Assembly: GCA_030390025.1 (NCBI GenBank)
Contig: CM059431.1
Location: 149,298,001 to 149,362,000 of the forward strand
Direction of reading: 5' to 3'
From: Squalus acanthias
Taxonomy: Eukaryota
Length of the DNA: 64,000 nt
The notes under the pieces are model-generated. The model had not been told where the DNA came from and did no database searches. It saw only the letters and a program-made list of their open reading frames with translations. Positions 1 through 54,629 of this stretch are shown piece by piece. The first letter of the stretch is position 1. Each line of letters begins with the position of its first letter. Both the position numbers and the translations under genes were made by a program.

Positions 1-451
1 CATCAATATAAGATAGTCACCAAGAAATCAAATAGGGAATTCAGAGTAAACTTATTTATGCAGAGAGTGATGAGAATGTGGAACACGCTACCACTGCGAA
101 TGGCTGTAGCGAATATTATGGATGCATTTAAGGGGCGGTTTGATAAGCTTAAAAGTGAGAAGGGAATAGAGGGTTATGCTGATAGAATTAAATGAGGAAA
201 GACGGGTGGAGGCTCGAGTGGAGCATAAATACCGGTCTAGACTGGTTGGGTCAAATGGCCTATTTCTGTCCCGAATATCCAATATAATCCTATGTAATCC
301 TATGAAACCCTTGCAATTACTTTACTCCTCTAGGCTTTCTGTAGTAGTGGGCTCTCAGCATTAGACAAAAGCTTCCCTTATTTCCATTCTTCTTCCCTGT
401 ATGCTTTTTGACATCCAGTGGGCCCTAAATTTGAGAGTCTCATCCTTTTTG

Positions 452-885
452 TCAGCTGTGGATCGGTTGGTTGCACACTCGCCTCTGAGTCAGAAGTTTT
501 GGGTTCAAGTCATATAAAACAATGCTGACACTCCAGTGCAGTGCTGAGGGATTGCTGCACTGTCGGAGGTAACGTCTTTCGGATGAGACTTTAAACGTCG
601 GCCCCGTCTGCTCCATCAGGTGGACGTAAAAATGCCAATGGCACTATTTCGATGAAGAGCAGTTGAGGTGTCCTGGCAAATATTTATCCCTGAATCAACA
701 TAACAAATCAGATTATCTGGTCATTTACACGGTACTATTTGTGGGAGCTTGTTGTGTGCAAATTGGCAGCCGCGTTTCCTACAATACAGCAGTGACTAAA
801 CTTCAACAGTACTCATTGGCTGTAAGCGCTTTAAGACGTCCTGTGGTCGTGAAAGGCGCTATATAATTGCAAGTCTTTCCTTTCC
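452..885 (+). mobile_element. tRNA-derived SINE, DeuSINE/SacSINE1-like
   Basis: tRNA-like head (CTCTGAGTCAGAAG...GGTTCAAGTC), core GTGCTGAGGG..TGCTGCACTGTCGGAGGT..CGTCTTTCGGATGAGAC, tail GTGAAAGGCGCTATATAA.TGCAAGT. Family name from recall. Confidence 0.75.
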
Positions 886-889
886 GTTT

Positions 890-1460
890 TTCTTTGGGGG
901 AACATATTTGCTCTGAACCCTCACTATCTCCTCCTTGAATGCCCCCCATTGCTCTGACAGGGGTTTACCTTCAAGTAGCTGTTTCCAATTCACTTTTGCT
1001 AAGTTGCAGCTCAGCTTAGTAAAATTGGCATTTCCCCAATTGAAAACGTTTGCACCTGGTCTATCTTTGTCCTTTTTCATAAGGGAGAATTTATTATAGA
1101 TATTAGAATTGTTGATTGGATTTCATAGTGCGCATAATTTGAATTGTTTTCCAGTGGCTGAAACTTGGGTAACCAGAGTACACAGAACTAAGTTAATAGG
1201 CAAAAGACCCAGAGGCGAGATGAGGATATTTAACTTTTTGCAGTGAGTTGATGTGATCTGGAATGCACTGTCTGAGAACGTGGTGGAAGGAGATTCAGGA
1301 GTAACTATCGAAAGGGAGTGGGATAATTAGTAGAATGGAATTTTTTTTACCGGGCTCTGGCTAATGTGTAGGAATAATGTGACAGCTCTTTCAAAGAGAA
1401 GACCCTGGCACGATGGGCCGAATGTCATCCTACTGTGCTGTACCATTCTTTGACACTATG
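890..1460. mobile_element. Two decayed CR1 LINE fragments (minus-strand ORF2 piece 890-1080; plus-strand 3' end 1085-1460)
   Basis: ORF 859..1080 (NWGNANF..VNWKQLLEGK..EQWGAFKEEI) matches the CR1 post-endonuclease linker. A CR1-type 3' tail follows (GGGCCGAATG..CTGTGCTGTACCATTC). Confidence 0.75.
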
Positions 1461-1639
1461 AGCAAGAGACAGAGAGAGAGAAGGGGGATAGTGAGACACG
1501 GAGACAAAGAAAAATAGAGACAGAAATACTAGGAGAGGTACAGCAGGGAAGAAATTAAATTAAAAGGGAATTGGATAAATACTTAAAGGGTAACAATTTG
1601 AAGGACAATGGAAAAAGAACAGGGAAATTGGAATAATTG

Positions 1640-2120
1640 GAAGGGGTGAGGCCATGGTGGGATTTGATCTTAAGGATGAGAATATTAAGATAGTGGCCTT
1701 TCCTGATCGGGAGCATATGGTGATCAGTGAGCAAAGGAGTGATGGGTGAACGGGACATGATGCGATTTAGGAGTTTTAGATGAGCTCGAGTTTATGGAGG
1801 CTTGTAACTGGGAGGCCATCCAGAAGAGTATTGGAATAGTCGGAGTGAGCTTAAACAAAGGCGCGGGTGAGGTTTTATGCTGCGGACGGGCTGAGGAGGT
1901 GCGGAGACGGATGATATTTTGGAGGTGGTAGTCGGCAGAACTGATGGTTCAGAGGATATGTGGTCGGACTCAGCACAGGCTGAAAGTGAACGCCATGGTT
2001 GCTAACAATCTGGTTCATCCTCAGACGTTGGTTAGGGAGGGGGACTGAATTGATAAATAAAAAAAGGAGTTTTTTGACGAGGACCGACGACAATGTCTTT
2101 GGACTTCCCAAGATTTAAAT
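1640..2120 (-). mobile_element. L2-type LINE fragment
   Basis: ORF 1875..2111 (NSVPLPNQRLRMNQIVSNHGVHFQPVLS) resembles the L2 post-RT segment; paralogous copy at about 52800-53290. Confidence 0.6.
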
Positions 2121-2383
2121 GATAAACACAGTAATACAGTGAGACCTGGTGTACAGATCTAATTGCTGGATGTAGAGACTTAACAGGAAGACCAACAGCA
2201 GCACAGATGAGATAGTAACTTCCGAGAATAGTAATACAGTATGCAAAGGTTTACAGATTTAATAGCTGGATACAGAGACTTACCAGGAACAACAACCGCA
2301 ACAAGGAAGGGAATGTAAAAGGCAAGAACTGCAGTGCAGTTATTCACGTTTTATAGAATTAATAACTGAATAGATTGACTTAC

Positions 2384-2564
2384 CAAAAACACCAACAGCA
2401 GCAAGGAGGGGATAGTAAATGCATTGCATAATCAGAAATGCGTAATAGATCTTACTTGTTAATGATAGATAATCATAAAATTCAGAAAACTTGTCAAACG
2501 CCAAGGAGAAACCCTTTCCCATTGTTGTAACGTTGCAATCTACTGAGCTCAGATTCTGATCCAT
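2384..2564 (-). CDS. GPR139-like: First coding exon (N-terminus plus TM1) of a GPR139-like rhodopsin GPCR; partner exon 2 not in the window
   Basis: First in-frame ATG at 2564 (ACAATGG). Encodes MDQNLSSVDCNVTTMGK...IYYPLLAAVGVF, then a phase-1 donor G|GTAAGT at 2384/2383. Confidence 0.8.
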
Positions 2565-2729
2565 TGTTGTAACATTCCAATCAACTGTTCTGAGGATCCA
2601 ACCGAGTGTTGAAACTTTCCAATCCGCTGCTCTCAGATTCCCACTCAATCTCTGATGAGCAGCGCACAGATCAATGTTAGTGCCGGAGGAGATGCTCTCA
2701 CTGACACTACGAGATAGCACATTGAAAGG

Positions 2730-2835
2730 AGTCCGTTATTAATAAAAGAGGTAAACCCTGCACTGATGCATTTATGGTCCATGGCGACTGACATTAATTA
2801 CAGTCACTGAACAAACAGCTTCAGTTAACCCGTTT
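2730..2835 (-). promoter_or_regulatory. Putative proximal promoter of the GPCR first exon (TATA-like TATTAATAA plus a conserved upstream block)
   Basis: Non-repeat block conserved with about 53860-54010 and partly with about 44715-44740. TATA-like motif about 175 bp upstream of the ATG. Confidence 0.45.
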
Positions 2836-2859
2836 CAATCCAGAACATTCTGTACCACA

Positions 2860-4652
2860 GTAAAGTAGAACATTTCCGCGGTCCGGATGAGATGCCTGAG
2901 TGTTGCTGAGGGAAGTAAAGGTGGAAACAGCGCAGGAACTGCCCAGAATCGTTCAATCCTCCTTGGATATAGGAGTGGGACCAAAGGATTTTAGAGTTGC
3001 CAATGTTACCACCTGCTTAAAAAAGAAGGGAGGGTTAAACCCTGTAACTACGGGCCAGTCAGGCTAATGTAGGCGGTGGGGAAATTTCTAAAGTACATAT
3101 ACCCGGAGAAAATTATCTGTCACTTGGAAAGAAACATGGATTAATAAATGACAACAAGCACGGATATGTTAACGACAAAGTGTGTCTGACCATCTTGATT
3201 GAGGTCTTTGATGAAGTAACGGAAAGGGTTGATGAGCGTAATGTGGTTGACGTTTGTACATGACTTTAGAAATGCATTTAATTAACTGTTTTTGAATAAA
3301 CTTGTTAGGAACAAAGGGGCAGTGGCAGTGCGGCTCTGAAATTGGCTGAGGGACAGAAAACAGAGAGTAGCGGTGACTGGTTGTTGTTCAGAGTCGAGTG
3401 AAGTATACAGTGGTGTCACCCCGGTCTCGCTATTCGGACCACTGATCATTTAGATAAATATTAAAAATATTGTTATATACATATATATATATATATATAT
3501 ATAAAGGGCATAATTTGAAGGTTTGCAGATGACACAAAAATAGGAAATGTAGTAAACACTGAGTGGGATCCGAGTAGGCTTCAGGAGGACATAAACAAAC
3601 TGCTGAAATGAGCAAAGTCTAGTGGGGTACCGCAGGGATCGGTGCTGGGACCCCAGTTATTCACAATATATATTAATGATCTGGACGAGGGAACTAGATG
3701 TAATATCTCCAAGTTTACAGTCGACACAAAGCTGGGTGGTCGTGTGTGCTGTGAGGAGGATGCAGAGAAACTCCAGTATGAATTGGACAGGTTGGGTGAT
3801 TGGGCAGATGCATGGCAGATGCAGTATAATGTGGATAAATGCGAGGTTATCCACTTTGATGGCAAAAACATGAAAGCAAATTATTATCTGAACGGCAATA
3901 GATTGGGAAAAGGGGAAGTGCAACGAGACTTGGGTGACTCTTAGCACCAATCGCTGAAGGTAAGCATGCAGGTGCAGCAGGCGGTTAAGAAGGCAAATGG
4001 TATGTTGGCCTTCATAGCGAGAGGTTTCGAGTACAGGAGCAAGGATGTCTTGCTGTAGTTGTACAGGGCCTTGGTGAGACCACACCTTGAGTTCTGTGTG
4101 CATTTTTGGTCGCCTTATCTTAGGAAGGATGTTCTTGCCATGGAGGGAGTCCGGCGAAGATTCACCAGGCTGATACCTGGGATGGCAGGAATGACGTATG
4201 AGGAGAGTTTGGTCGATTGGGCTTGTATTCGCTAGAGTTTAGAAGAATGAGAGGGGATCTCATTGAAACTTATACAATTCTGACAGGAGTAGACAGACTA
4301 GATGCAGGAAGGATGTTCCCGATGGCGGTGGTGTCCAGAAGCAAGGTCACAGTCTAAAGATAAGGGGTAAGCCATTTAGGACTGAGATTAGGAGGAATTT
4401 CTTCACCCAGAGAGTGGTGAATCTGTGGAATTCTCTACCGCAGAAGACAGTTGAGTCCAATTCATTAAATATATTCAAGAAGTAGTTAGATATATTTCTG
4501 AAGGCTAAAGGGATCAAGGGATATGTGGAGAAAGCAGGGGCAGGGTACTGAACTTGGATGATCAGCCATGATCGCATTGAATGGCGGAGCAGGCTCGAGG
4601 GACCGAATGGACTAGTCCTTCTCCTATCTTCTATGTTTCTTCGTTTCTATGA
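2860..4652 (+). mobile_element. CR1 LINE RT fragments (older 2860-3618, younger 3619-4652 with 3' tail)
   Basis: GVPQGSVLGPQLFTIYINDLDEG..SKFTVDTK RT motifs (ORF 3642..3944) and the 3' tail GATCAGCCATGATC..GGCGGAGCAGGCTCG..TTCTATG. Confidence 0.9.
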
Positions 4653-5068
4653 TAAAAGGGGACCGCTAAAATGATTCCCTCTTTAAAAGGGTCTCTGATA
4701 GTGACACTCCCTCTTTAAAAGGAATCCTGTGTGTGAGAATCTCTCTTTGAAAGGGATCCCTGATGGTGACTCACTCATTAATAGGGCTCCCTGATAGAAA
4801 GACTCCCTCTTTTGAAGTGATCGCTAATGGCAAGTCTCTCTTTAAGTGGACTCCCTTATAGAAAGACTCCCTCTGTACAAGGGCTGCCTGATGGTGAGGC
4901 TCACTCTTTAAAAGGGATCCCAGATGGTAAGACTCATCTTTAAAAAGTGTCCGTGCTGCTGAATCGCCATCTTTAAAAGAGGTCCCCGATTGTGAGGCTC
5001 CCTCTTTAAAAGGGGTCCCTGGTGGAGAGACTCTCTCTTTAAAATGGACCCCGGATGGATGGACTCTC
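4653..5068. repeat. 33-bp satellite, truncated at the duplication breakpoint
   Basis: Degenerate units of AAAAGGGGTCCCTGATGGTGAGACTCCCTCTTT. Confidence 0.9.
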
Positions 5069-5114
5069 ACGAAGCGATGGAGAGGATAATAACACAGGCA
5101 GCAATAGAGAGTTG

Positions 5115-6180
5115 GCAGAAAGTAGGGATAAAGGGTAGCTAATCAGCCTGGCAGAAGGAGGGTAGTGGTGTTCTACAAGGATCACTGCTGGGACTACTGT
5201 TGTCCAGAACTTATATTAACGATTTAGATTTTGGAACCAAAAACATAATTTCAAAATGTGTGGACGACAGGAATTTGGAGGGGATGGCCAACACTGAGGA
5301 GGACAGCAACAAATTACAAGAAGACCTTAATAAACTTGCAGAATTGGCATATAATTAGCAAATGACATTCAACACAGATAAATGTGAGGTATTACATTTT
5401 GTTATGACAAATAGGGAGGTCACATATTACTTGGAAAATAGGATTCCAAAATGGGGCAGAGGTGCAAAGGGATCTAAGAGTACAAATATACAAATCGTTG
5501 AAAATTATCGACACAGGCTAAAAAGGCCATACAAAAAGCAACCCAACCACTATGATTTATTTCTAGAGGGATAGAATTGTAGAGTAGTGAAGTTATGCCA
5601 AACTTTGTATCGAACATTGGTGTGGACTTGATTAGATCAAAATTGGATTACTATATGCATTGCTGGTCGCCATAGTATAAAAAAAGGACATGAAGGCACT
5701 GGAGAGGGTGCAGAGACGATTTACAAAGATGATACCAGAAATGCGAGGGTACACATATCATGAAAGGATGAACACACTGGATATCTTTTCACTTGAAAAT
5801 AAAAGGCTGAGGGCTGACCCAATAGAAGTCTTTAAATCATGAAAGATTTTGACAGAATAAATGCAGAGAGAATGTTTCCACTTTTGGGAAGAGGAAAACT
5901 AGAGTTCATCAATATAAGATAGTCACCAAGAAATCAAATAGGGAATTCAGAGTAAACTTATTTATGCAGAGAGTGATGAGAATGTGGAACACGCTACCAC
6001 TGCGAATGGCTGTAGCGAATATTATGGATGCATTTAAGGGGCGGTTTGATAAGCTTAAAAGTGAGAAGGGAATAGAGGGTTATGCTGATAGAATTAAATG
6101 AGGAAAGACGGGTGGAGGCTCGAGTGGAGCATAAATACCGGTCTAGACTGGTTGGGTCAAATGGCCTATTTCTGTCCCGA
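5115..6180 (+). mobile_element. Decayed CR1 LINE RT and 3' region (its last ~270 bp also at 1-270)
   Basis: MTFNTDKCEVLHF motif (ORF 5362..5574); colinear with about 50510-51540. Confidence 0.85.
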
Positions 6181-6357
6181 ATATCCAATATAATCCTATG
6201 TAATCCTATGAAACCCTTGCAATTACTTTACTCCTCTAGGCTTTCTGTAGTAGTGGGCTCTCAGCATTAGACAAAAGCTTCCCTTATTTCCATTCTTCTT
6301 CCCTGTATGCTTTTTGACATCCAGTGGGCCCTAAATTTGAGAGTCTCATCCTTTTTG

Positions 6358-6790
6358 TCAGCTGTGGATCGGTTGGTTGCACACTCGCCTCTGAGTCAGA
6401 AGTTTTGGGTTCAAGTCATATAAAACAATGCTGACACTCCAGTGCAGTGCTGAGGGATTGCTGCACTGTCGGAGGTAACGTCTTTCGGATGAGACTTTAA
6501 ACGTCGGCCCCGTCTGCTCCATCAGGTGGACGTAAAAATGCCAATGGCACTATTTCGATGAAGAGCAGGTGAGGTGTCCTGGCAAATATTTATCCCTGAA
6601 TCAACATAACAAATCAGATTATCTGGTCATTTACACGGTACTATTTGTGGGAGCTTGTTGTGTGCAAATTGGCAGCCGCGTTTCCTACAATACAGCAGTG
6701 ACTAAACTTCAACAGTACTCATTGGCTGTAAGCGCTTTAAGACGTCCTGTGGTCGTGAAAGGCGCTATATAATTGCAAGTCTTTCCTTTC
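6358..6790 (+). mobile_element. DeuSINE-like SINE (duplicate copy)
   Basis: Near-identical to 452-885. Confidence 0.75.
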
Positions 6791-8289
6791 TGTTTTTCTT
6801 TGGGGGAACATATTTGCTCTGAACCCTCACTATCTCCTCCTTGAATGCCCCCCATTGCTCTGACAGGGGTTTACCTTCAAGTAGCTGTTTCCAATTCACT
6901 TTTGCTAAGTTGCAGCTCAGCTTAGTAAAATTGGCATTTCCCCAATTGAAAACGTTTGCACCTGGTCTATCTTTGTCCTTTTTCATAAGGGAGAATTTAT
7001 TATAGATATTAGAATTGTTGATTGGATTTCATAGTGCGCATAATTTGAATTGTTTTCCAGTGGCTGAAACTTGGGTAACCAGAGTACACAGAACTAAGTT
7101 AATAGGCAAAAGACCCAGAGGCGAGATGAGGATATTTAACTTTTTGCAGTGAGTTGATGTGATCTGGAATGCACTGTCTGAGAACGTGGTGGAAGGAGAT
7201 TCAGGAGTAACTATCGAAAGGGAGTGGGATAATTAGTAGAATGGAATTTTTTTTACCGGGCTCTGGCTAATGTGTAGGAATAATGTGACAGCTCTTTCAA
7301 AGAGAAGACCCTGGCACGATGGGCCGAATGTCATCCTACTGTGCTGTACCATTCTTTGACACTATGAGCAAGAGACAGAGAGAGAGAAGGGGGATAGTGA
7401 GACACGGAGACAAAGAAAAATAGAGACAGAAATACTAGGAGAGGTACAGCAGGGAAGAAATTAAATTAAAAGGGAATTGGATAAATACTTAAAGGGTAAC
7501 AATTTGAAGGACAATGGAAAAAGAACAGGGAAATTGGAATAATTGGAAGGGGTGAGGCCATGGTGGGATTTGATCTTAAGGATGAGAATATTAAGATAGT
7601 GGCCTTTCCTGATCGGGAGCATATGGTGATCAGTGAGCAAAGGAGTGATGGGTGAACGGGACATGATGCGATTTAGGAGTTTTAGATGAGCTCGAGTTTA
7701 TGGAGGCTTGTAACTGGGAGGCCATCCAGAAGAGTATTGGAATAGTCGGAGTGAGCTTAAACAAAGGCGCGGGTGAGGTTTTATGCTGCGGACGGGCTGA
7801 GGAGGTGCGGAGACGGATGATATTTTGGAGGTGGTAGTCGGCAGAACTGATGGTTCAGAGGATATGTGGTCGGACTCAGCACAGGCTGAAAGTGAACGCC
7901 ATGGTTGCTAACAATCTGGTTCATCCTCAGACGTTGGTTAGGGAGGGGGACTGAATTGATAAATAAAAAAAGGAGTTTTTTGACGAGGACCGACGACAAT
8001 GTCTTTGGACTTCCCAAGATTTAAATGATAAACACAGTAATACAGTGAGACCTGGTGTACAGATCTAATTGCTGGATGTAGAGACTTAACAGGAAGACCA
8101 ACAGCAGCACAGATGAGATAGTAACTTCCGAGAATAGTAATACAGTATGCAAAGGTTTACAGATTTAATAGCTGGATACAGAGACTTACCAGGAACAACA
8201 ACCGCAACAAGGAAGGGAATGTAAAAGGCAAGAACTGCAGTGCAGTTATTCACGTTTTATAGAATTAATAACTGAATAGATTGACTTAC

Positions 8290-8470
8290 CAAAAACACCA
8301 ACAGCAGCAAGGAGGGGATAGTAAATGCATTGCATAATCAGAAATGCGTAATAGATCTTACTTGTTAATGATAGATAATCATAAAATTCAGAAAACTTGT
8401 CAAACGCCAAGGAGAAACCCTTTCCCATTGTTGTAACGTTGCAATCTACTGAGCTCAGATTCTGATCCAT
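8290..8470 (-). CDS. GPR139-like: Duplicate GPR139-like first coding exon
   Basis: Same translation as 2384-2564; ATG at 8470; donor G|GTAAGT at 8290. No exon 2 lies between it and the 2.4 kb copy. Confidence 0.75.
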
Positions 8471-8765
8471 TGTTGTAACATTCCAATCAACTGTTCTGAG
8501 GATCCAACCGAGTGTTGAAACTTTCCAATCCGCTGCTCTCAGATTCCCACTCAATCTCTGATGAGCAGCGCACAGATCAATGTTAGTGCCGGAGGAGATG
8601 CTCTCACTGACACTACGAGATAGCACATTGAAAGGAGTCCGTTATTAAGAAAAGAGGTAAACCCTGCACTGATGCATTTATGGTCCATGGCGACTGACAT
8701 TAATTACAGTCACTGAACAAACAGCTTCAGTTAACCCGTTTCAATCCAGAACATTCTGTACCACA

Positions 8766-10556
8766 GTAAAGTAGAACATTTCCGCGGTCCGGATGAGATG
8801 CCTGAGTGTTGCTGAGGGAAGTAAAGGTGGAAACAGCGCAGGAACTGCCCAGAATCGTTCAATCCTCCTTGGATATAGGAGTGGGACCAAAGGATTTTAG
8901 AGTTGCCAATGTTACCACCTGCTTAAAAAAGAAGGGAGGGTTAAACCCTGTAACTACGGGCCAGTCAGGCTAATGTAGGCGGTGGGGAAATTTCTAAAGT
9001 ACATATACCCGGAGAAAATTATCTGTCACTTGGAAAGAAACATGGATTAATAAATGACAACAAGCACGGATATGTTAACGACAAAGTGTGTCTGACCATC
9101 TTGATTGAGGTCTTTGATGAAGTAACGGAAAGGGTTGATGAGCGTAATGTGGTTGACGTTTGTACATGACTTTAGAAATGCATTTAATTAACTGTTTTTG
9201 AATAAACTTGTTAGGAACAAAGGGGCAGTGGCAGTGCGGCTCTGAAATTGGCTGAGGGACAGAAAACAGAGAGTAGCGGTGACTGGTTGTTGTTCAGAGT
9301 CGAGTGAAGTATACAGTGGTGTCACCCCGGTCTCGCTATTCGGACCACTGATCATTTAGATAAATATTAAAAATATTGTTATATACATATATATATATAT
9401 ATATATAAAGGGCATAATTTGAAGGTTTGCAGATGACACAAAAATAGGAAATGTAGTAAACACTGAGTGGGATCCGAGTAGGCTTCAGGAGGACATAAAC
9501 AAACTGCTGAAATGAGCAAAGTCTAGTGGGGTACCGCAGGGATCGGTGCTGGGACCCCAGTTATTCACAATATATATTAATGATCTGGACGAGGGAACTA
9601 GATGTAATATCTCCAAGTTTACAGTCGACACAAAGCTGGGTGGTCGTGTGTGCTGTGAGGAGGATGCAGAGAAACTCCAGTATGAATTGGACAGGTTGGG
9701 TGATTGGGCAGATGCATGGCAGATGCAGTATAATGTGGATAAATGCGAGGTTATCCACTTTGATGGCAAAAACATGAAAGCAAATTATTATCTGAACGGC
9801 AATAGATTGGGAAAAGGGGAAGTGCAACGAGACTTGGGTGACTCTTAGCACCAATCGCTGAAGGTAAGCATGCAGGTGCAGCAGGCGGTTAAGAAGGCAA
9901 ATGGTATGTTGGCCTTCATAGCGAGAGGTTTCGAGTACAGGAGCAAGGATGTCTTGCTGTAGTTGTACAGGGCCTTGGTGAGACCACACCTTGAGTTCTG
10001 TGTGCATTTTTGGTCGCCTTATCTTAGGAAGGATGTTCTTGCCATGGAGGGAGTCCGGCGAAGATTCACCAGGCTGATACCTGGGATGGCAGGAATGACG
10101 TATGAGGAGAGTTTGGTCGATTGGGCTTGTATTCGCTAGAGTTTAGAAGAATGAGAGGGGATCTCATTGAAACTTATACAATTCTGACAGGAGTAGACAG
10201 ACTAGATGCAGGAAGGATGTTCCCGATGGCGGTGGTGTCCAGAAGCAAGGTCACAGTCTAAAGATAAGGGGTAAGCCATTTAGGACTGAGATTAGGAGGA
10301 ATTTCTTCACCCAGAGAGTGGTGAATCTGTGGAATTCTCTACCGCAGAAGACAGTTGAGTCCAATTCATTAAATATATTCAAGAAGTAGTTAGATATATT
10401 TCTGAAGGCTAAAGGGATCAAGGGATATGTGGAGAAAGCAGGGGCAGGGTACTGAACTTGGATGATCAGCCATGATCGCATTGAATGGCGGAGCAGGCTC
10501 GAGGGACCGAATGGACTAGTCCTTCTCCTATCTTCTATGTTTCTTCGTTTCTATGA
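8766..10556 (+). mobile_element. CR1 LINE fragments (duplicate of 2860-4652)
   Basis: ORF 9546..9848 is identical to ORF 3642..3944. Confidence 0.9.
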
Positions 10557-13500
10557 TAAAAGGGGACCGCTAAAATGATTCCCTCTTTAAAAGGGTCTCT
10601 GATAGTGACACTCCCTCTTTAAAAGGAATCCTGTGTGTGAGAATCTCTCTTTGAAAGGGATCCCTGATGGTGACTCACTCATTAATAGGGCTCCCTGATA
10701 GAAAGACTCCCTCTTTTGAAGTGATCGCTAATGGCAAGTCTCTCTTTAAGTGGACTCCCTTATAGAAAGACTCCCTCTGTACAAGGGCTGCCTGATGGTG
10801 AGGCTCACTCTTTAAAAGGGATCCCAGATGGTAAGACTCATCTTTAAAAAGGGTCCGTGCTGCTGAATCGCCATCTTTAAAAGAGGTCCCCGATTGTGAG
10901 GCTCCCTCTTTAAAAGGGGTCCCTGGTGGAGAGACTCTCTCTTTAAAATGGACCCCGGATGGATGGACTCTCTCTTTAAAAGGTGTCCCGGATGGTGATA
11001 CACCCTTTTTAAAAGGGGTCCCTGATGGTGAGGCTATTTCTTTAAAAGCGGTCCCTGATGCTGAATCTCCCTCTTTAAAAGTGGTCCCTGATGGTGAGAC
11101 TTTCTCATTAATAGGAATCCCTGATGCTGAAACACCCTATTTAAAAGGGGTCCCTGATGGTGATCCTCTTTAAAAGGGGTCCCTAATGGGGAGAATCTCT
11201 CTTTAAAAGTGGTCCCTGATAGAAAGTTTCCTAATTTAAAAAGTGTCCCTGATGATGAACCACCCTTTTTAAAAGTGGTCCCTGATTGTAAGATGCCTTA
11301 TTTTAAAGGATCCCTGATGGTGAGACACCCTCTTTAAATGTGGTCCCTGAAGGCGAGACTCCTTCTTTAAAAGGTACCCCTGATTGTAAGATTCACTATT
11401 TAAAATGGGTCCCTGATGGGGAGTTACCCTCTTTAAAAGCGGTCCCTGATGGTGAAACTCTCTCTTTAAAATGGATCCCTGATGATGAGAATCTCTCTTT
11501 AAAAGGGGTCCCTTATGGTGAGACTCCCTCTTTAAAAGGGGACCATGATGGGTCGACACCCTCTTTAAAAGGGGTCCGTTATTGAGACACTCCCTCTTTT
11601 AAAGGGGTCCCTTATGGTGAGACTCTCTCTTTAAAAGGGGTCCCTGATGGAGAGATTATGTTTTTAAAAGCGGTCCCTGATGCTGAATCCCTTTAAAAGG
11701 GGTCCCTGATGGTGAGACTATCTCTTTAAAAGAGGTCCCTGATGGTGAGGCATTCTCTTTAAAATGGGTCCCTGATTATGAGACTCCGCCTTTAATCGGT
11801 GTCCTTGATGCTGAAACACCCTCTTTAAAAGTGGTCCCTGATGGTGAGTCTCGTTAAAAGGGGTCACTAATGGGGAGAATCTCTCTTTAAAAAGTCTCCC
11901 TGATAGAAAGTCTCCCTCTTGTAAAAGTGTCCCTGATGCTGAAACACCTCTTTAAAAGGGGTCCCTGATGGTAAGCCTCTTTAAAAGGGTTCCCTAATGG
12001 GGATAATCTCTCTTTAAAAGGTTTCCCTGATTGAAAGTCTCTCTCATTAATAGGGGTCCCTGATGATAAGATTCCCTATTTTAAAGGGGTCCCTGATAGT
12101 GAGACACCCTCGTTAAAATTGGTCCCTGATGGTGAGACTCCCTCTTTAAAATGTGTCCCTGATGGTAAGATTCCCTATTTAAAAGGGGTCCCTGATGGGG
12201 CGACACCCTCTTTAAAAGTGGTCCCTGATGATGAGACGCTCTCTTTAAATGGGGTCCCTGATAGAGTGAGTATCACTTTAAAAGCAGTCCCTGATGCTAA
12301 AATTCCCTCTGTAAAAGCGATCCCTGATGGTGAGACTCTCTCTTTAAAAAGTGTCCCTAATGATGAGGCTCCGTTTTTTTAAAAGGGGACCCTGACGGGA
12401 ATGCTCCCTCTTTAAATGTGGCCACTGATGGAGACACTCCCTCTTTAAAAGGGGTCCCTGATAGGGCGAAACCCTCTTTAACAGGGACCCTGATTGATTC
12501 ACTCCCTCTTTAAACGGGGTCCCTGATGTTGAGACTCCCTGCTTAAAAGGGGTCCCTGATGGTGAGACTCCCTCTTTCAAAGGGGTCCCTGTTGGAGAGA
12601 ATCTCTCTTTAAAAGGGGTCCCTGGTGGAGAGACTTTCTCATTAATTGGTGTCCCTGATAGAAAGACGTCCTCTTTAAAAGGGGTACCTGATAGAAAACT
12701 CTCTTTAAACGTGTCCCTGATGGTGAGACGCCCTCTTTTAAAGCGGTCCCTGATGGTGAGACTCCCTCTTTAAAAGGGGTCCCTGATGGGTACGATCCCT
12801 CTTTAAAAGCGGTCCCTGATGGTGAGACTCCCTCTTTAAAAGGAGTCCCTGATGGGTATTATCCCTCTTTAAAAGCGGTCCCTGATGGTGAGACTCCCTC
12901 TTTAAAAGCGGTCCCTGATGGTGAGACTCCCTCTTTAAAAGCATTCCCTGATGGGGCGAAACCCTCTTTAAAAGGGTCCCTGATTGAGACACACCCTCTT
13001 TAAAAGCGGTCCCTGATGGTGTGATTCTCTCATTAAAACGAGTACCAGATGCTGAAACTCGTTCTTTAAAAGAGGTCCCTGATGGTGAGACTCAGTCTTT
13101 AAAAGGGGTGCCATGTGGAGAGATTATTTCTTTAAAAGGTGCCCCTGATAGGGAGACACCCTCTTTAAAATGGTTCCCTGATGGCGAGTCTCTCTCTTTA
13201 AAAGGGGTCCCTGATGCTGAAACACTTTCCTGATTGTGAGACTATCTCTTTGAAAGGGGGCCCTGATGGGGCGAATCTCCCTTTAACAGGGTTCCCTGAT
13301 AGTGATACTCACTCTTTAAAACGGGCCCCTGATGGTGAGATTCCTCCTTTAAAAGGGGTCCCTGATGTTTACGCTCACTCTTTAATAGCGGTCTTTGATG
13401 GGAAGACACCCTCTTAAAAAGGTATCCCTGATGGAGATACTCCCTCTTGAAAAGCGGTCTCTGATGGTGAGACTCTCTGTTTAAAAGGTGTCCCTGATAG

Positions 13501-13651
13501 AAATAATCCGTCTTTAAAACGGGTCCTTTGATGGAAACGATTTATCCTTAAAATGGATCCCCGAGGGTGAGACTCCCGCTTTAAAAAGGGTCCCTGATGG
13601 TTAGGCACACTCTTTAATAGGCTTCCCTGATGGGGAGATTATCTCTTCAAA
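10557..13651. repeat. 33-bp tandem satellite, block 1
   Basis: Head-to-tail units GGTCCCTGATGGTGAGACTCCCTCTTTAAAAGG; translate as KGVPDGETPSL or HHQGPLLKRES repeats. Confidence 0.97.
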
Positions 13652-16002
13652 AGGATATTGTGGCCATTACAGAAACATGGCTGCAGGGTGACAATGCCTG
13701 GGAATTAAACATACCAGGTTATTTAACGATCAGGAAGGACAGGCAGGAAGGAAGGGGAGGTGGGGTGGCTATGTTAATAAAGCAAGGAATCACTATAATA
13801 CAGAGTAATGATATTGGGTCAAAAAATCATGATAATGAAACAGTTTGGGTGGAGATAAGGAATAATAAGGGGAAAAAAACACTAGTGGGCGTAGTCTATA
13901 GGCCTCCGAACAGTTGCAACTCTGTTGGACAGAGTATCAATCAGGAAATAGTTGTGGCTTGTAATAAGAGAACATCTATAATTATGGGGGATTTTAACTA
14001 TCATATTAATTGGACAAATAAAATTGGGCAGGGCTGCCTTGAGGATGAGTTCATTGAGTGTATTAGGGATGGGTTTCTTGAGCAGTATGTAACTGAACCG
14101 ACCAGGGGGCAAGCAACCTTAGATCTGGTCCTGTGTAACGAGACAGGATTAATTAAAAATGTCCTAGTAAAGGATCCCCTTGGAATGAGTGACCATAACA
14201 TGGTTGAATTCCATATTCAATTAGAGGGTGAGAAGGTTGGATCTCAAACAAGCGTGCTAAGCTTGAATAAAGGAGACTATGAAGGTATGCGAGCGGAATT
14301 GACTAGAGTGGATTGGGAAAATAGATTAAAGGGTAAGACGACACATGATCAGTGGTGTACATTCAATGAGTTATTTTACAACTTCCAAAAAATATATATT
14401 CCACTGAAAAGAAAAGGGTGTAAAAGAAAGGACAGTCATCCGTGGCTAAGTAAAGAAATTAAGGATAATATTCGACTAAAAACAAGGGCATATAAGGTAG
14501 CGAAATCTAGTGGGAGGACAGAGGATTGGGAAAACTTTAAAAGGCAGCAAAAAATAACAAAAAGATTGTTTAAGAAAGGGAAGATAGATTATGAAAGTAA
14601 ATTAGCAAAAAATATAAAAACAGATAGTAAGAGTTTTTATAGTTATATAAAAAGAAAAAGGGTGGCTAAAGTAAATGTTGGTCCCTTAGAGGATGAGACC
14701 GGGAAATTAATGGTGGGAAATATGGAGATGGCAAAAACACTGAATGAATATTTTGTATCAGTCTTTACAGTAGAGGACACTAAGAATATCCCAACACTGG
14801 ACAAACAGGAGGCTATAGGCGGAGAGGAGCTAAACACGATCAAAATCACTAAGGAAGTGGTACTCGGTAAAATAATGGGTCTCAAGGCGGATAAATCACC
14901 TGGACCTGATGGCTTACATCCTAGAGTCTTGAAGGAAGTGGCGGTAGGGATTGTAGATGCATTGGTAATAATTTTTCAAAACTTCCTGGATTCCGCTAAG
15001 GTCCCGGCAGACTGGAAAACTGCTAATGTAACACCCTTATTTAAAAAGGGCAGTAGACAAAAGGCTGGTAACTATAGACCGGTTAGCCTAACATCTGTGC
15101 TAGGTAAAATTTTGGAGTCCATTATTAAGGAAACAGTAACAGGACATTTGTATAATCATAATTTAATAGGACAAAGTCAGCATGGTTTTACGAAGGGGAA
15201 GTCATGTTTGACAAATTTGCTGGAGTTCTTTGAGGAAGTAACATATAGAGTGGATAAAGGGGAACCAGTGGACGTATTGTATTTAGACTTCCAAAAGGCA
15301 TTTGACAAGGTGCCACACAAAAGATTATTGCTTAAGGTAAAAAATCACGGGATTGGGGGTAATATTCTGGCATGGATAGAGGATTGGCTATCTAACAGAA
15401 AGCAACGAGTTGGGATAAATGGTTCATTCTCATACTGGCAATCAGTAACTAGTGGTGTTCCACAGGGGTCAGTGCTGGGTCCCCAACTCTTTACAATCTA
15501 TATTAACGATTTGGAGGAAGGGACCAAGTGTAACATATCAAAATTTGCAGATGATACTAAGATGGGAGGGAAAGTAGTGAGTGAGGAGGACATAAAAAAC
15601 CTGCAAGGGGACATAGACAGGCTAAGTAAGTGGGCAGAGATTTGGCAGATGGAATACAACACTGGAAAGTGTGAGGTGATGCACTTTGGCAGGAAAAATC
15701 CTAGAGCAATTTATTATCTTAATGGCAAGAAACTGGAGAGTACTGAAGTGCAAAGGGATCTGGGGGTCCTGGTGCACGAAACTCAAAAGTTTAGTATGCA
15801 GGTGCAGCAAGTGATTAAGAAGGCAAATGGAATGTTGGCTTTCATTGCTAGGGGGATAGCATGTACAAATAGGGAGGTATTGCTTCAGTTGTACAAGGTA
15901 TTGGTGAGACCGCACCTGGAATACTGCATACAGTTGGTGTCCTTACTTAAGGAAAAAACATCCTTGCTCTCGAGGCAGTGCAAAAAAGGTTCACACGGTT
16001 AA
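13630..16002 (+). pseudogene. CR1 ORF2 reading frame (790 aa; EN N-terminus missing, C-terminus frameshifted)
   Basis: ORF track. The first residues (MGRLSLQK) derive from the satellite. Confidence 0.85.
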
Positions 16003-16611
16003 TCCCGGGGATGAGGGGGTGGTCATATGAGGAGAGGTTGGGTAGATTGGGACTCTACTCATTGGAGTTCAGAAGAATGAGAGGCGATCTTATTGAAACA
16101 TATAAGATTGTGAAGGGGTTGGATCGGGTGGATGCGGGGAGGATCTTCCCGATGACGGGTGAGACTAGAACTCGGGGACATAGTCTTAGAATAAGGGGCT
16201 GCTCTTTCAAAACTGAGATGAAAGAGGAACTACTTCACTCAGAGGGTGGTAGGTCCATGGAATATGCTGCCACAAAAAGCTGTAGAAGCTACATCATTAA
16301 ATAAATTTAAAACCGAAATAGACAGTTTCCTAGAAGTAAAGGGCATTAAGGGTTACGGGGAGCGGGCAGGAATTTGGACATGAATCTAGGTTCGGATCGA
16401 TCATGGCCCTGTGGGTAGTGGAGCGGGCCCAGGGACCGTGTAGCCTGATTCTGCTCCTATTTCGTGTGTGCAATTCTGTTAGATGCAGGAGATGGTTCTG
16501 TGATAGTAGATTGGCGGTTAGGATCAGATCAGCCATGATCTTATTGAATGGCGGAGCAGGCTCGAGGGGCCGATTGGCCTACTCCTGCTCCTATTTCTTA
16601 TGTTCTTATGT
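13652..16611 (+). mobile_element. Young 5'-truncated CR1 LINE with nearly complete ORF2 (APE endonuclease plus RT) and 3' tail
   Basis: ORF 13630..16002 carries DIVAITETWL, GVVYRPP, MGDFNY, TLDLVL, SDHN (EN) and YRPVSLTS, LDFQKAFDKV, GVPQGSVLGP, FADD (RT). Frameshift at about 15935-15965, C-terminus in ORF 15978..16304, ends TTCTTATGTTCTTATG. Confidence 0.97.
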
Positions 16612-18972: not shown

Positions 18973-18974
18973 GG

Positions 18975-19170
18975 CAATGATGTGGAGATGCCGGTGTTGG
19001 ACTGGGATGGACAAAAACGAGAAGTCGCACAACACCAGGTTATAGTCCAGCAGTTTTAACTGAAATTACGAGCTTTCGGAGTGCTGCTCCTTCGTCAGGT
19101 ACAGTGAGGGAATATAAATAATTTACAAAGCACATATAGACAGAGAACATAAAGACAAAGCACATGTAAA
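18975..19170 (-). mobile_element. Penelope-like terminal fragment (family B)
   Basis: Matches the termini at 42904-43030 and 35654-35774 (GATGTGGAGATGCCGGTGTTGGACTGGG...CACCAGGTTATAGTCC); contains a hammerhead motif. Confidence 0.75.
19066..19102 (-). ncRNA. Minimal hammerhead ribozyme motif (Penelope-associated)
   Basis: Reverse strand reads GUAC-CUGACGA-A-GGAGC AGC ACUCC-GAAA-GCUC-GUAA: core CUGANGA/GAAA, stem I UAC/GUA, stem II with one mismatch, palindromic AGCU in stem III. Confidence 0.65.
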
Positions 19171-19175
19171 CATTT

Positions 19176-22100: not shown

Positions 22101-22588
22101 TCCGTCTCCGCCGCATCTGCTCTGATGATGCCACCTTCCATACCAGTGCTTCCGACATGTCTTCCTTTTTCCTCAACCGAGGATTCCCCTGTACCATGGT
22201 CGACACGGCCCTCGACCGTGTCCGTTATATCTCCTGCACTTCTGCACTCACCCCTGCCCCTTCCTCCCGAAACCACCATAGAATTCCCCTTGTCCTCACC
22301 TTTCACCCCACCAGCCTGCACATTCAACGGATCATCCTCCGCCATTTCCACCACCTCCAGTGTGATCCCACCACCAAACGCATCTTCCCCTCACCTCCCC
22401 TTTCAGCATTCCGCAGGGACCGCTCCCTCCGCGACACCCTAGTCCACTCCTCTGCCACCCCCAGCACCCCTTCCCCTTCGCCCAACAGCTTCCCGTGCAA
22501 GCGCAGGAGATGCAACACATGCCCTTATACCTCCCCTCTTCCCACTGTCCAGTGCCCCAAACACCCCTTCCAGGTGAAACAGCGATTT
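19176..22588 (+). mobile_element. Penelope-like retroelement (family A): upstream partial copy (pseudo-LTR with GIY-YIG) plus a decayed long ORF with RT
   Basis: GIY-YIG NLVYCIRCSRCGPLYIGETKRRLGDRFAEH (ORF 19323..19730). RT motifs FYLLPKIHK, MDVQSLYTSIPH, FFRYIDDCIG. About 19178-19412 is directly repeated at about 22350-22586. Several frameshifts; the QxxGxAMG segment is deleted. Confidence 0.93.
20008..20044 (+). ncRNA. Minimal hammerhead ribozyme motif in the Penelope pseudo-LTR
   Basis: AGUU-CUGAUGA-A-AUGUC UUC GACCU-GAAA-CGUU-AACU: stem I AGUU/AACU, palindromic ACGU in stem III, one stem II mismatch. Confidence 0.65.
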
Positions 22589-40291: not shown

Positions 40292-40389
40292 GTAAATTAC
40301 CCCGCCGGCGGGAGGGCGGCCCGGGGGAGAGCACCTCCCCGCAATACCAAGCCCAGGGAGCTCTCAGGCGAAAAAGTTTCCGCATCAAA

Positions 40390-41290
40390 TCATCCTTTAA
40401 TGAATTTTACAGTAAGAGTGAAGGGATATTTCGCTACATTCTTCAACTGCTCTCTGAACTTAGTCTGGGTCATGGCATAAATCCCAGTATTTGTGCAGCA
40501 ACTCAGCATCTGCAGCATCAATCCCAATTCCATTAGATAAATAGGTGGATGTACAGAACCATAACCAAAAAAACATATCCGGGCCCATATATAAAACAAC
40601 GTAAAGATTGCCCATAACAGGATGAAGTTGCCGGAGATAACAAGCAGTAAAATAATAGATTTCCTGCGGCTCTCCATCTCTGGGTCTCTAGGACTGTCCC
40701 CACTGCTGGGACCCCGGAGTCTCCTGCGGGCTCTGCTGGACACTAATATGTGTCTGACGGTGACAGCATTGAGCAGCAGAATCACAACAAATGGGTCCCC
40801 GCGGTGAGAATATAATGAAGAAGCTCAATTGTTCCCCAGACCGTTGAATACACAGAATCCACTGTTACACCACAAAACCAGGGCATGTTGAAAAGCATAT
40901 ACAAATCTGTGAACATAAAATACCAGAAAATGTTCTTTGTACCGCTCAGCACAGTCACTGTTCCCAGAACCTCAGCCGCCGTTTTCTGGGTGCAATATTT
41001 AGTTGTCAGCTTCTGGTGACAAATGGCCACAAATCGATCAAATGTGAAAGTGACAGTGAACCAGACAGAACAGTCTGTGACTGCATAAAGCAGGACGGCA
41101 TGGATATTACACACGGGGATGGACTCCACGAAACTAAACTGTTCCCTAAATACAATCGGAATCTGCCTCAACATCAGATCAAGGATAACGACCAGCAGAT
41201 CCGCCGCTGCCATGGCAACCAGGTAGCGAGCGACACATTTAGAGAGACCGCACTTTCCCCGGGACAGGATCACAATCGTCACTAAGTTTA
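40390..41290 (-). pseudogene. GPR139-like: Second coding exon (end of TM1 to TM7 and stop) of a GPR139-like GPCR, with one -1 frameshift at about 40795
   Basis: Acceptor TTTCCCTTGCTCAAAG|TA (phase 1). NLVTIVILSRGKCGLS, YLVAMAAADLLVVI, TFDRFVAICH, then in a new frame ILLLNAVTVRHIL..RRKSIILL..SCCTNTGIYAMTQTKFR, TGA at 40390. With the 53.5 kb exon, 181+901+1 nt = 361 codons. A sequencing error in the C4 run is possible. Confidence 0.88.
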
Positions 41291-43410: not shown

Positions 43411-43737
43411 TTTCAAATAAAGCTGTTGGACTATAACCTGGTGTTGTGCGACTTCTCAGATTTGTCCTTTAGAATCAACAGCCGGCAGCTGTCAGATGGG
43501 CTGGGGAATGAAAAGGAGGGAAATACAGTAAAACATGATATATAGAATTAAAAGCTGGATACAGAGACTTACCAGGGATACCGATAGCAGCGAGGATGTG
43601 CCAGAAATTTTAAACAAGAACACTTGCATTAACAAAGATGCAACAACTTGAAACACATAATACCATTAATAACTGAGTATGCCACGGTAAATAGGAAGAA
43701 TAATATTACAGAATTAATAACTGGCCATGTTACTTAA

Positions 43738-44623
43738 TAGGAACACTAACAGCAGCGAGAAGGGGCTAGAAAATGTTTTGTATATCCTCCCCTCCCCTTT
43801 CAGCATTCCGAAGGAACCGCACCCTCCACAACACGCTGGTCCACTCCTCAATCACCCCCAACATACACTTCCCCTCTCCTCGGCACCTTCCCGTGCAAGC
43901 GCAGAAGATGCGACGCCTGAACTTTTAACTTCTCCCTTCCCACTGTGCAGGGCCCCAAACACTCCTCCCAGATAAAACAGCGATTTACTTGTACTTCTTG
44001 CAAGTCAGTATACAGTATTCGCTGCTCAAGTTGCGGTCTACTATACACTGGGGAAAACAAATGCAGATTGGGTAATCGGTTTCTGAACACTGCCGTTCAG
44101 TTGGACTCGTGACTTCGAGCTTCCGGTCTCCTGTCACATAAATTATTTGCTCTCCCTCCCACTCTGACCTCTCTGTCCACGGCTTGATACAGCGTTCCAA
44201 TGAAGCTCAATTTAAGCTCGAGCAACAGCACCTCATCATTCTATTGGGCACTTTACAGCCTTCTGTACTCAACATTCAGTTCCGCAATTTCAGATCATAA
44301 TCTGGCCGCTGTTTTTTCAGGCGGCAGCTGCTGATGTTTCTACCATCCACATTTGCAACATTTAACCACTCTTCCTTTCCACATTATCACAGGCCATCAC
44401 TTTTGTTCCTTCGTTCCCTCACCCCCTTTTCCCAAAACCTGTACTTGCTTGAAATCTTTTACATCTCTCGCTTTTTCCAGTTCTGAGGAAGGGTCACAGA
44501 ACTGAAACGGTAACTCTCTTTCTCTCGCCACAATGCTGCCTGACATGCTGAGTGTTTTCACCATTTTATGTTGTTATTCCAAAGTATTATTGTTAACTGT
44601 CACTGTTCAAGTATACTTTCCAT
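43738..44623 (-). pseudogene. Destroyed GPCR first exon split by a Penelope fragment
   Basis: 5' part has ATG at 44623 (MESILEQ*QLTIILW). 3' part 43738-43786 reads DIQNIF*PLLAAVSVP with a dead donor (A|TTAAGT). Upstream 44680-44740 resembles the 5'UTR/TATA region of the intact exons. Confidence 0.65.
43787..44578 (+). mobile_element. Penelope family A 3' fragment (GIY-YIG remnant, degenerate hammerhead at about 44479-44515)
   Basis: Colinear with about 19220-20110. Confidence 0.85.
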
Positions 44624-44749
44624 AGAGATCCACAAACTCACGACATCCCTACTGTGTGAGGCTGGTGGCCTTTTTGCTGGAGGCATCGCGCTGATTGTAT
44701 GAGGTCACAGAGTGAAGGGAGCTACTTATTTAGAGCAGAGGAGGGCGTT

Positions 44750-46020
44750 TCCAAGGGGCCCCAAGATTAAACCGCTCCCGCCTCAGTACAGAAAATTGAC
44801 TCCCAGGGACGCCAAGATAACACTGCTCCCACCTGAGTCCAGGAATAGCATTCCCTGGGCAGCCTAGATTACACTGCTCCCGCATCAGTCCAGGAATATA
44901 ATTCCTAGGGACACCTGGATTACACAGCTTCCGCCTCAGTCCAGGAATATAATTCTTGGGGTCACCAAGATTGCACTGCTGCCTGCTCAGTCCAGGAATT
45001 TCATGTTGAGGGCCCACTAGATTATACGGCTCCCGCTTCAGTCCAAACATTTCATTTCTTGGGCCAGCGAGATTACACTGCTCCCATATTATGCTAGGAA
45101 TTTTATTCCCAGGGCTGCATCGATTACACTGCTGCTGACTCAGTCCTCGTATGTGATTCCGAGGGATGCCTCGATTTCACTGCTGGCGCCTCAGTTCAGG
45201 AATTTAATTCCCAGGCCAGCCAAGATTGCACTGTTCCTGCCTCAGTCTAGGAAATTAAACACCTGGGCCGCCTAGATGAGAATGCTCCCGCCTCAGTTCA
45301 GGAATTTCACTCTCAGGGCGCCGACATTACACTGTTTAGAACATAAGATCATAAGACATCGGAGCAGGAATAGGTCATTTGTCCCCTAGAGCCTGCTCCG
45401 CCATTAAATAAGATTATGGCTGATCTGATCTTGGCCTCAACTCCACTTCCCTGCCCACTCTCCATAACTGTTGACTCCCTTATCGTTCAAAATTCTGTCT
45501 ATCTCCACCTTAAATATATTCAATGATCCAGCCTCCACAGCTCTCTGGGGAAGAGAATTCCAAAGATTCACGAACCTCTGAGAGAAGAAATTCTTCCTCA
45601 TTTCCGAATTAAAAGGGTGCCCCCTTATACTGAAATTATGCCCCCTAGTTCTAGATTCTACCACGAGGGGAAACATCCTCTCTGCCTCTAACCTGTCAAG
45701 CCCCTTCAGAATCTTAGATGTTTCAATAAGATCCCCTCTCATTCTTCTAAACTACAATGTGTATAGGCCCAAACTGTTCAACCTTTCTTCATAAGATAAC
45801 ATCTAGGTGAGAATGCTCCCGCCTCAGTCCAGGAATGTCATTCCCAGGGCCATCGAGATTACACTGCTCCCGTCTCTGTCGAGGAATTCCATTCCCTGTG
45901 CCTCCTACATAATACTGCTTCTGCCTCAGTACAGGAATTTCATTCCCAGGGCCGACTGGATTACACTGCTCCCACCTCAGTCCAAGAATGTCAATCCCAG
46001 GGCAGACTAGATTACACTAC
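44750..46020. repeat. 51-bp tandem repeat (GATTACACTGCTCCCGCCTCAGTCCAGGAATTTCATTCCCAGGGC..), interrupted by CR1
   Basis: Unit starts at 44765, 44816, 44867; about 11 units to 45335 and about 4 units at 45806-46020. Confidence 0.9.
45337..45800 (-). mobile_element. CR1 3' end
   Basis: ORF 45437..45742 (MRGDLIETSKILKGLDR..NFFSQR..NLWNSLP). Confidence 0.88.
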
Positions 46021-53554: not shown

Positions 53555-53735
53555 CAGGAACGCCAACAGCAGCAAGGAGGGGGTAGTAAATGAATTGAAT
53601 AATCATAAGTGCGAACTGGATCTGTTGTTCTAATGATAGTTCATCATAATGTACAGACAAATATTCAACCACCCAGGATATACTCCTGACCATTGTTGTA
53701 ACATTCCAATCTACTGTTCTCAGCTTCTGATCCAT
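53555..53735 (-). CDS. GPR139-like: First coding exon of a GPR139-like GPCR; probable partner of exon 40390-41290 (intron about 12.3 kb)
   Basis: ATG at 53735; MDQKLRTVDWNVTTMVRS...IQFIYYPLLAAVGVP; donor G|GTAAGT, phase 1. G+TA gives Val, reading AVGVP-V-NLVTIVIL. Confidence 0.82.
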
Positions 53736-54629
53736 TGTTGTAACATTCCAATCTACTGTTCTCAGATTCCGGCTCCCTCTCTGTGGAACATCGTGCTGAT
53801 TCCTATTAGTACCGCAGCTGATGCTCTCACTGACGCTATGGTATAACACATTGAAAGGAGTCCCTTATTAATAGAAGAGTGAAACCCTGCACTGATGCAA
53901 TTAGGGTCCATGGAGAATGACATTAATTACAGTCACTGAACAAACAGCTTCAGTTAACCCGTTGAGACTGACATTAATCGTAGTCAATGAACAAACAGCT
54001 TCAGTTAACCCTTTTCAATCCAGCAGGTTTTGTAGCACAGTAGAGTAGAATATTTCCGCGGTCGGGGTGGTCTGTATCAGGATTTATGAGGGAAGGAATG
54101 ATGGAAATAGCGCATGATCTGTCCAGAATCTTTCAATCCACCTTGGATATTGGAGCGGTGCCGGAGGATTGTAGGGTTGCAGGTGTTACACACAGTTTAA
54201 AAAAGGAGAGAGGGATAACCCCTGTAACTATAGGCCTGTCAGGCTAACGTCGGTGGTGCGGGAACTTCTCGAGGCCATATTCCCGGAGAAAATTAACTGT
54301 CACTTGGAAAGAAACATGGATTAATAATTGACAACGATCACGGACATGTTAACGGCAAAGTGTGAATGACAATCTTGATTGAGTTCTTTGATGAAGTAAT
54401 GGAGATGGTTGATGAGTGTAGTTTGGTTGACGCTGTTTATATGGACTTTAAATGCATTTGATAAAGTTCATTGAATAAACCTGTTAGGACCAAAGGGTCA
54501 GTGGCAGAATGGATTTGACATTGGCTTAGGGACAGAAAACAGAGAGTAGTGGGGAATGTTTGTTGTTCAGCGTGGTGGGAAGTATACACGGGGGACCTCC
54601 AGGAGTCGCTATTCGGACCTCTAAACTTA

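Follow-up and report, generated by a model that had tools for sequence, protein, structure and literature searches.

The stretch analysed here, called the window throughout, comprises 64,000 nucleotides of Squalus acanthias DNA (assembly GCA_030390025.1, contig CM059431.1, forward-strand positions 149,298,001 to 149,362,000). Its minus strand carries all receptor parts present, namely four promoter/exon-1 units, at 2.4, 8.3, 44 and 53.6 kb, and one receptor-body exon at 41 kb, the latter matching Pfam 7tm_1 and encoding a class A seven-transmembrane (7TM) body (Table 1). The best explanation is that the window holds pieces of two genes, here A (53.9 to 40.4 kb) and B (8.7 kb to beyond the left edge), from a birth-and-death cluster of two-exon shark GPR139-like receptors, each gene with one extra promoter/exon-1 cassette. 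A first-pass annotation of the same DNA had instead proposed a variable-first-exon locus resembling the clustered protocadherins and UGT1A, with tandem cassettes feeding a common exon 2. We consider it rather probable that the locus reflects cluster turnover, with one fresh, identical extra cassette in gene B and one case of distal first-exon use in gene A.

The first 169 residues of exon 2 recovered 1262 proteins at E ≤ 1e-10 (of 2136 candidates). Among the best 120 of these, which derive from four shark species according to their source names, identity to exon 2 is 70-83% and the label is mostly 'probable G-protein coupled receptor 139'; gene models so named include those of Heptranchias perlo, Heterodontus francisci and Pristiophorus japonicus. 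The label is automatic and is used here as a family name only, implying neither orthology nor ligand, and human GPR139 is the top solved match, yet remote (E 6e-15, identity ~24%). Relatives display two types of N-terminus, a long form with 14-residue repeats and a short form of ~32 residues, sharing a common end point in the first transmembrane helix (TM1). The N-terminal exons of the window likewise stop at the family junction, within the first half of TM1, and exon 2 provides ~300 of 360 residues, or ~83% of the protein. The annotated shark models thus resemble the window genes in exon-2 sequence, in the TM1 junction and in the long and short N-termini, while differing in being annotated as separate two-part genes.

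A profile built from the best 120 relatives was used to search the window by tblastn and hidden Markov model (HMM), with blastn added for exon 2. It returned exon 2 and three first exons (53.6, 8.3 and 2.4 kb) and nothing further of note, the family profile matches reaching HMM E-values of 1e-103 and 2e-74. No second exon 2 or remnant of one was detected in the 64-kb window by tblastn/HMM or blastn, and the earlier count of a single 7TM-body exon therefore stands, save that this exon is frameshifted. A literature search of titles and abstract starts returned nothing on this shark receptor family or its exon layout, and the family may be described elsewhere; the available portions of PMC11979771 and PMC8455134 make no mention of GPR139 or GPR142, and that of PMC12208981 none of sharks or cartilaginous fishes.

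Each first exon is accompanied by its own predicted promoter, as judged from the homology of a 66-nt core. With both strands of the window considered, the top four matches to this core, at 53885, 44746, 8662 and 2756, coincide with the four first-exon units proposed in the first-pass annotation; the next best match scores 33, against a background of 16.9 ± 3.7. The weakest of the four, that of the 44-kb unit, stands above background, its local alignment score being matched or exceeded in 0 and 1 of 2000 shuffles, and by this match the fourth unit is genuine. As cassettes the four units fare less uniformly, three being intact and the 44-kb unit being a dead cassette of the short type, with two stops, a lost donor and an exon split by a Penelope-like element. 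The donors after 2384, 8290 and 53555 are intact and all phase 1, as had been noted. Phase 1 is however the one splice point inherited by the family, and thus adds no evidence of its own.

Gene B carries a tandem duplication, correctly recognized before as ~5.9 kb long and holding promoter and exon 1, to which part of the intron has to be added. Positions 1-5068 and 5907-10972 are 99.88% identical, with four substitutions (663 and 885, both intronic, 2743 and 4948) in 5066 nt, equal to 0.08% divergence, and one 2-nt indel in a TA run. Exon 1 of the 2.4-kb unit encodes the 14-residue repeat, the N-terminal helix and the first half of TM1, and no copy difference falls in it: the 2.4- and 8.3-kb exons specify the same 60 residues, and the pair consequently cannot diversify the ectodomain. 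Should both promoters be active, the two transcripts would each be spliced from their own first donor and yield the same protein, and thus at most the level or pattern of expression would be changed at present. Hence, from the earlier proposal that promoter cassettes feed a shared exon 2 and change dosage or ectodomain, the dosage effect is plausible for the 2.4/8.3 pair, both promoters feeding a single exon 2, provided that the duplication is real, while the ectodomain change falls away with the identical residues.

The same annotation held that first exons multiply without exon 2. For the 2.4/8.3 pair this does not follow: only 2.4 kb of the gene B intron is visible, and the homologous intron of the 53.6-kb unit continues for at least 4.9 kb without an exon 2. 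The unseen exon 2 of gene B is therefore probably a window-edge effect, and we infer that it lies left of the window. A search for an annotated partner with the 2.4-kb exon 1 gave 4 matches among 11 candidates, the best at only 54%.

Two readings of the 5.9-kb repeat have to be weighed, and we favour a true duplication over an assembly artefact. At the junction (5068/5069) the 33-bp satellite abuts a cut retroelement fragment, with microhomology of ~1 nt and without any N; since the homologous fragment of the 53.6-kb unit runs on into different sequence, the joint is non-homologous, and what it connects are unrelated sequences, not the ends of a repeat common to both sides. Moreover, each copy has a derived base, the left one at 663 and the right one at 8649. 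The event would accordingly be a tandem duplication, non-homologous and very recent, in which the promoter, exon 1 and some of the intron were copied. Should instead two alleles or an error-bearing copy have been placed in tandem, gene B would possess one ordinary exon 1, which we regard as unlikely but not negligible. A divergence of 0.08% is within the range expected for alleles. On the plus strand, T>G accounts for three of the four substitutions (663, 2743 and 4948 versus 6569, 8649 and 10852), an odd excess that counts against a true duplication and may be chance or could be consensus error. False duplications of both the heterotype and homotype kind are widespread according to the available text of PMC9516828, and the near-identical adjacent partial gene copies of the window are similar to them. 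They mostly flank a gap, however, and the window contains no N at all, between the copies or elsewhere, which together with the non-homologous junction sets the present case apart and tips the balance towards a true duplication.

The closest precedent for the 2.4/8.3 pair, by analogy, would be PEP1, the FLC orthologue of Arabis alpina. As described in the accessible part of PMC3527215, promoter, exon 1 and part of intron 1 of PEP1 are present in tandem, 6.3 kb apart, both copies are spliced to one exon 2, and an identical protein is predicted in one accession; use of both exons was demonstrated by complementary DNA (cDNA) and 5' rapid amplification of cDNA ends (5' RACE), the upstream sequences have diverged, and an origin from an array of whole genes was suggested. 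The shark window has the same layout, in which promoter, exon 1 and some of intron 1 are duplicated in tandem without downstream exons, at a similar spacing of 5.9 kb. As far as that text goes, gene B differs in that 2.3 kb of upstream sequence is near-identical, and in belonging to a very large family.

The single-base difference at 2743/8649, put forward earlier for assigning transcripts to copies, is located in the TATA-like element and probably upstream of the start site; it thus cannot mark transcripts, and we rejected it as a 5' RACE marker as probably untranscribed. We do not claim the 8649 change as a promoter knock-out, the 44-kb promoter having the identical base.

In gene A, the intact 53.6-kb exon 1 and exon 2, when joined, give 225 codons of open frame and preserve the family junction. 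Exon 2 has premature stops in neither of its frame segments, and its sole lesion is the frameshift near 40797. Between the two lies the 44-kb short-type exon 1, with three point lesions and an insertion, as compared to one lesion in exon 2, a 6.8-fold larger target. When lesion targets are computed from codon content and from the flanks' indel rate, the short exon makes up 13% of the joint target yet has three of the four point lesions (P = 0.008, or 0.001 with the insertion included). The Penelope-like insert itself, compared with the open copy at 19.2 kb and with the natural stop excluded, has acquired one premature stop and five frameshifting indels, and the probability that exon 2 would hold at most one of the resulting seven lesions is 0.011. 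This asymmetry implies that exon 2 outlived the adjoining short exon 1. On these grounds gene A was probably spliced across the dead first exon until recently: the 53.6-kb exon 1 would have been joined over 12.3 kb, past the long-dead 44-kb cassette, to exon 2, which then would have acquired its one frameshift. In this account the short exon was either superseded by the long one or belonged to a cassette carried passively in the intron. For the 53.6/44/41-kb gene there is thereby indirect support that a distal exon 1 was spliced past a proximal one. A search of sequencing runs with 40300-41500 listed 21 rows, none an RNA source and none with half of the query words (best share 0.20), and thus no run from this species.

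Several observations weigh against this account. Part of the lesions of the insert may predate its insertion. Exon 2 departs from the family at 8 of 148 conserved columns, one being the frameshift gap, where the family median is 4 and 14 of 119 relatives are as high, pointing to an exon that has decayed somewhat. Neutral evolution since the separation from the 8.3-kb unit would still leave the 53.6-kb exon intact in 21% of cases. Finally, gene conversion or a recent crossover could yield a young exon 2 downstream of an exon 1 that died long ago. We assign a minor though real share of probability to an alternative in which the 53.6-kb exon 1 lost its own exon 2 by deletion and is an orphan, while the 44-kb exon and the 41-kb exon 2 constitute an ordinary pseudogene with exon 2 renewed by conversion or crossover. 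In line with it, exon 2 has its excess of departures at conserved columns, the 44-kb unit has its own predicted promoter and satellite and is situated 2.4 kb from exon 2, relatives often have near-identical paralogs, and trees do not fix the partner of exon 2. Both a quick tree of 120 rows and one of 36 hand-picked rows of 209 failed to settle whether that partner was a long or a short exon; the latter places exon 2 with long-type genes, but weakly so (86/65, not significant), and the long/short labels are partly automatic and can err where a model starts at a later Met. An orphan exon nevertheless requires an extra event to account for the lesion asymmetry, and the 53.6-kb exon, its donor and its promoter core are all intact, with the exon in frame. 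The donor after 43573, in the second donor module of the 44-kb unit, was considered as part of a rescue exon and rejected, given the stop upstream and the lack of an ATG.

To place the two genes in context, exon 1 and exon 2 were compared across relatives. Splitting at the junction succeeded for 202 of 206 proteins, and 116 have a long family-type exon 1. Among these 116 (6670 pairs), exon-1 identity is 0.96 where exon-2 identity is at least 99%, declining to 0.46 at 70-80% (Mantel r 0.24, 0/2000 permutations). In five of the six groups with identical exon 2 the N-terminus is the same or nearly so. The word 'isoform' occurs in the displayed name of 0 of 96 proteins, members of 10 of the 120 clusters. 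When exon 2 is at least 95% identical (212 pairs), exon 1 is below 70% in 20 pairs; 14 of these were set aside by eye, sharing the 3' end of exon 1 and differing by internal deletions or foreign 5' extensions, which leaves 6 of 212 as true mosaics. By these comparisons whole-gene duplication is the rule in the family and exon-1 exchange the exception. The mosaics, from two other sharks, include P0030 versus P0060, and P0204 (XP_067836187.1) versus P0205 (XP_067836159.1), where the body of P0204 equals that of the short-type P0205 but carries a long exon 1. Such models are automatic and maybe mis-joined, and show the same long-before-short-body arrangement as gene A. The bodies of P0030 and P0060 are 95% identical with a foreign exon 1, and both pairs are candidate first-exon swaps or annotation mis-joins.

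The part of the receptor that would be exchanged is predicted to be partly structured. In an AlphaFold model of the relative P0006 (mean predicted local distance difference test score 66), exon 1 comprises a disordered repeat, a helix at residues 13-28 and the start of a long TM1 (35-70). The most variable stretch of the family is residues 16-45 (modal frequency 0.52-0.55), closely followed by two exon-2 loop stretches (0.56-0.57); since its loops vary to a similar degree as exon 1, exon 2 does not qualify as a constant region as understood in the available text of PMC1885805. Between the 53.6- and 8.3-kb exons, codons 16-42 differ at 0.39 of nonsynonymous sites (pN) and 0.11 of synonymous sites (pS), as compared to 18% divergence of 4 kb of flank. 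For this segment, chosen after looking, Fisher P is 0.04 and the scan-corrected P is 0.02, which suggests diversifying selection, based on one pair only. If the model holds, the exon-1 ectodomain would be a structured helix apparently diversifying above neutral DNA, and swaps of first exons would alter the receptor surface.

The long N-terminus derives from a 42-nt repeat (2523-2624 and 53686-53769), whose copies usually have their own Met and N-glycosylation sequon. By a rough pattern count the relatives P0001-P0206 have 0 to 5 copies, and repeat number is a simple route to vary ectodomain length and glycosylation.

The clustered protocadherins, UGT1A and GCNT2 combine tandem first exons that have their own promoters with birth-and-death, relics and positive selection on the first exon, as stated in the portion of PMC1885805 at hand. 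The window is similar in its tandem first exons, each with its own, here predicted, promoter, in its probable birth-and-death with relics, and in the suggested selection on exon 1. In the systems described there, however, many diverged and working first exons encode a specificity domain and join one conserved constant set, whereas at the shark locus the 3' exon is most of the protein, multiplied and variable, and the extra first exons are identical or dead. That the window is a true locus of this type, with different working cassettes spliced to a common exon 2, for example left of the window, is accordingly very improbable in our view. In its favour are the promoter core and phase-1 donor counted for each cassette, the divergence of codons 16-42 beyond that of the flank, the distal splicing over a dead exon indicated for gene A, the mosaic models, and a left flank that could contain further units. 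On the other hand, no exon 2 in the window has two different intact first exons, gene A having one intact and one dead and gene B, as far as visible, two identical ones; between the 53.6- and 8.3-kb cassettes sits an exon 2 with acceptor; true mosaics are few among close pairs; and a single, unmultiplied constant region is not what is found, exon 2 having 1262 relatives and variable loops, and exon 1 tracking exon 2. The likeness to protocadherins and UGT1A drawn in the first-pass annotation is thus not borne out.

Cluster turnover, our preferred reading, may nevertheless include more exchange than the window alone reveals. It is conceivable, though doubtful, that promoter and exon 1 form an exchangeable cassette in shark GPR139-like clusters, with partial duplications seeding extras, a diversifying N-terminal helix being grafted onto other bodies and some loci running two different cassettes simultaneously. 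If so, the window would capture the cycle at two stages, a fresh duplicate (2.4/8.3 kb) and a completed replacement (53.6/44/41 kb), and would represent an incipient variable-first-exon system in a family of G-protein coupled receptors of class A. For the most part, however, ordinary cluster turnover would suffice, and counts of first exons in one window overstate combinatorial splicing. The lesion pattern suggests that a receptor gene can run from a distant first exon across a dead one, and distal first-exon use is a step by which arrays of whole genes could become variable-exon clusters. Should swaps turn out to be common, this shark family, very large and little studied, would offer a test system for the origin of protocadherin/UGT1A-like architecture.

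Table 1. Features of genes A and B in the window (coordinates of the window).
Feature	Position	Strand	Remarks
Left copy of tandem unit	1..5068		first ~840 nt beyond window; only 391 nt of upstream 33-bp satellite retained
Right copy of tandem unit	5069..10972		junction 5068/5069
Two degenerate 100-nt repeats of exon-1 end and donor	2160..2314	-	behind 2.4-kb exon 1; GT retained after 2284 but not after 2184
Proximal long-type exon 1, coding part (gene B)	2384..2564	-	60 codons + 1 nt; ATG 2564; GT donor after 2384 intact, phase 1
Putative promoter core, 2.4-kb unit	2691..2756	-	57 of 66 to 53.6-kb core; TATA-like element 2744-2736
Distal long-type exon 1 (gene B)	8290..8470	-	protein-identical to 2.4-kb copy; phase-1 donor intact
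Putative promoter core, 8.3-kb unit	8597..8662	-	56 of 66; derived base 8649 within TATA-like element
Exon 2, TM1 second half to C-terminus (gene A)	40390..41290	-	~300 codons; Pfam 7tm_1; acceptor AG ends 41291; one frameshift near 40797
Second donor module, 44-kb unit	43550..43603	-	GT intact after 43573; in-frame stop 12 codons upstream, no ATG between
Dead short-type exon 1, 3' half	43738..43785	-	stop replaces conserved Tyr; donor lost
Decayed Penelope-like (GIY-YIG) fragment	43786..44578	+	inside short exon 1; 77-81% identical to 19.2-22.6 kb element
Dead short-type exon 1, 5' half	44579..44623	-	ATG 44623; stop at codon 8
Diverged putative promoter core, 44-kb unit	44681..44746	-	38 of 66
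51-bp satellite arrays	44764..46018		immediately upstream of 44-kb promoter
Long-type exon 1, intact (gene A)	53555..53735	-	60 codons + 1 nt; protein 56% identical to 8.3-kb exon; in-frame join to 41-kb exon 2
Putative promoter core, 53.6-kb unit	53820..53885	-	66 of 66; sequence match

All long exons 1 (2160-2414, 8066-8320 and 53330-53585, minus strand) are followed by two degenerate copies of their 3' end and donor, at a spacing of exactly 100 nt. The second donor copy, although degenerate, keeps its GT and could serve as an alternative 5' splice site adding an in-frame stop. A comparable donor module is present in the 44-kb unit, at 165 nt.

The space between the receptor units is filled by three unrelated satellites of 33, 32 and 51 bp (10580-27318, 30595-37354 and 44764-46018, respectively). 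The breakpoint of the duplication falls within the 33-bp satellite, while only the 51-bp array adjoins a promoter. Inside the 33-bp satellite field, a young copy of the long interspersed nuclear element (LINE) type displays a 793-codon open frame with endonuclease and reverse transcriptase domains (13621-16002, plus strand). A largely complete Penelope-like element with a GIY-YIG frame, interrupted by a few stops, occupies 19194-22624 (plus strand), and related fragments are found at 43-44.6 kb.

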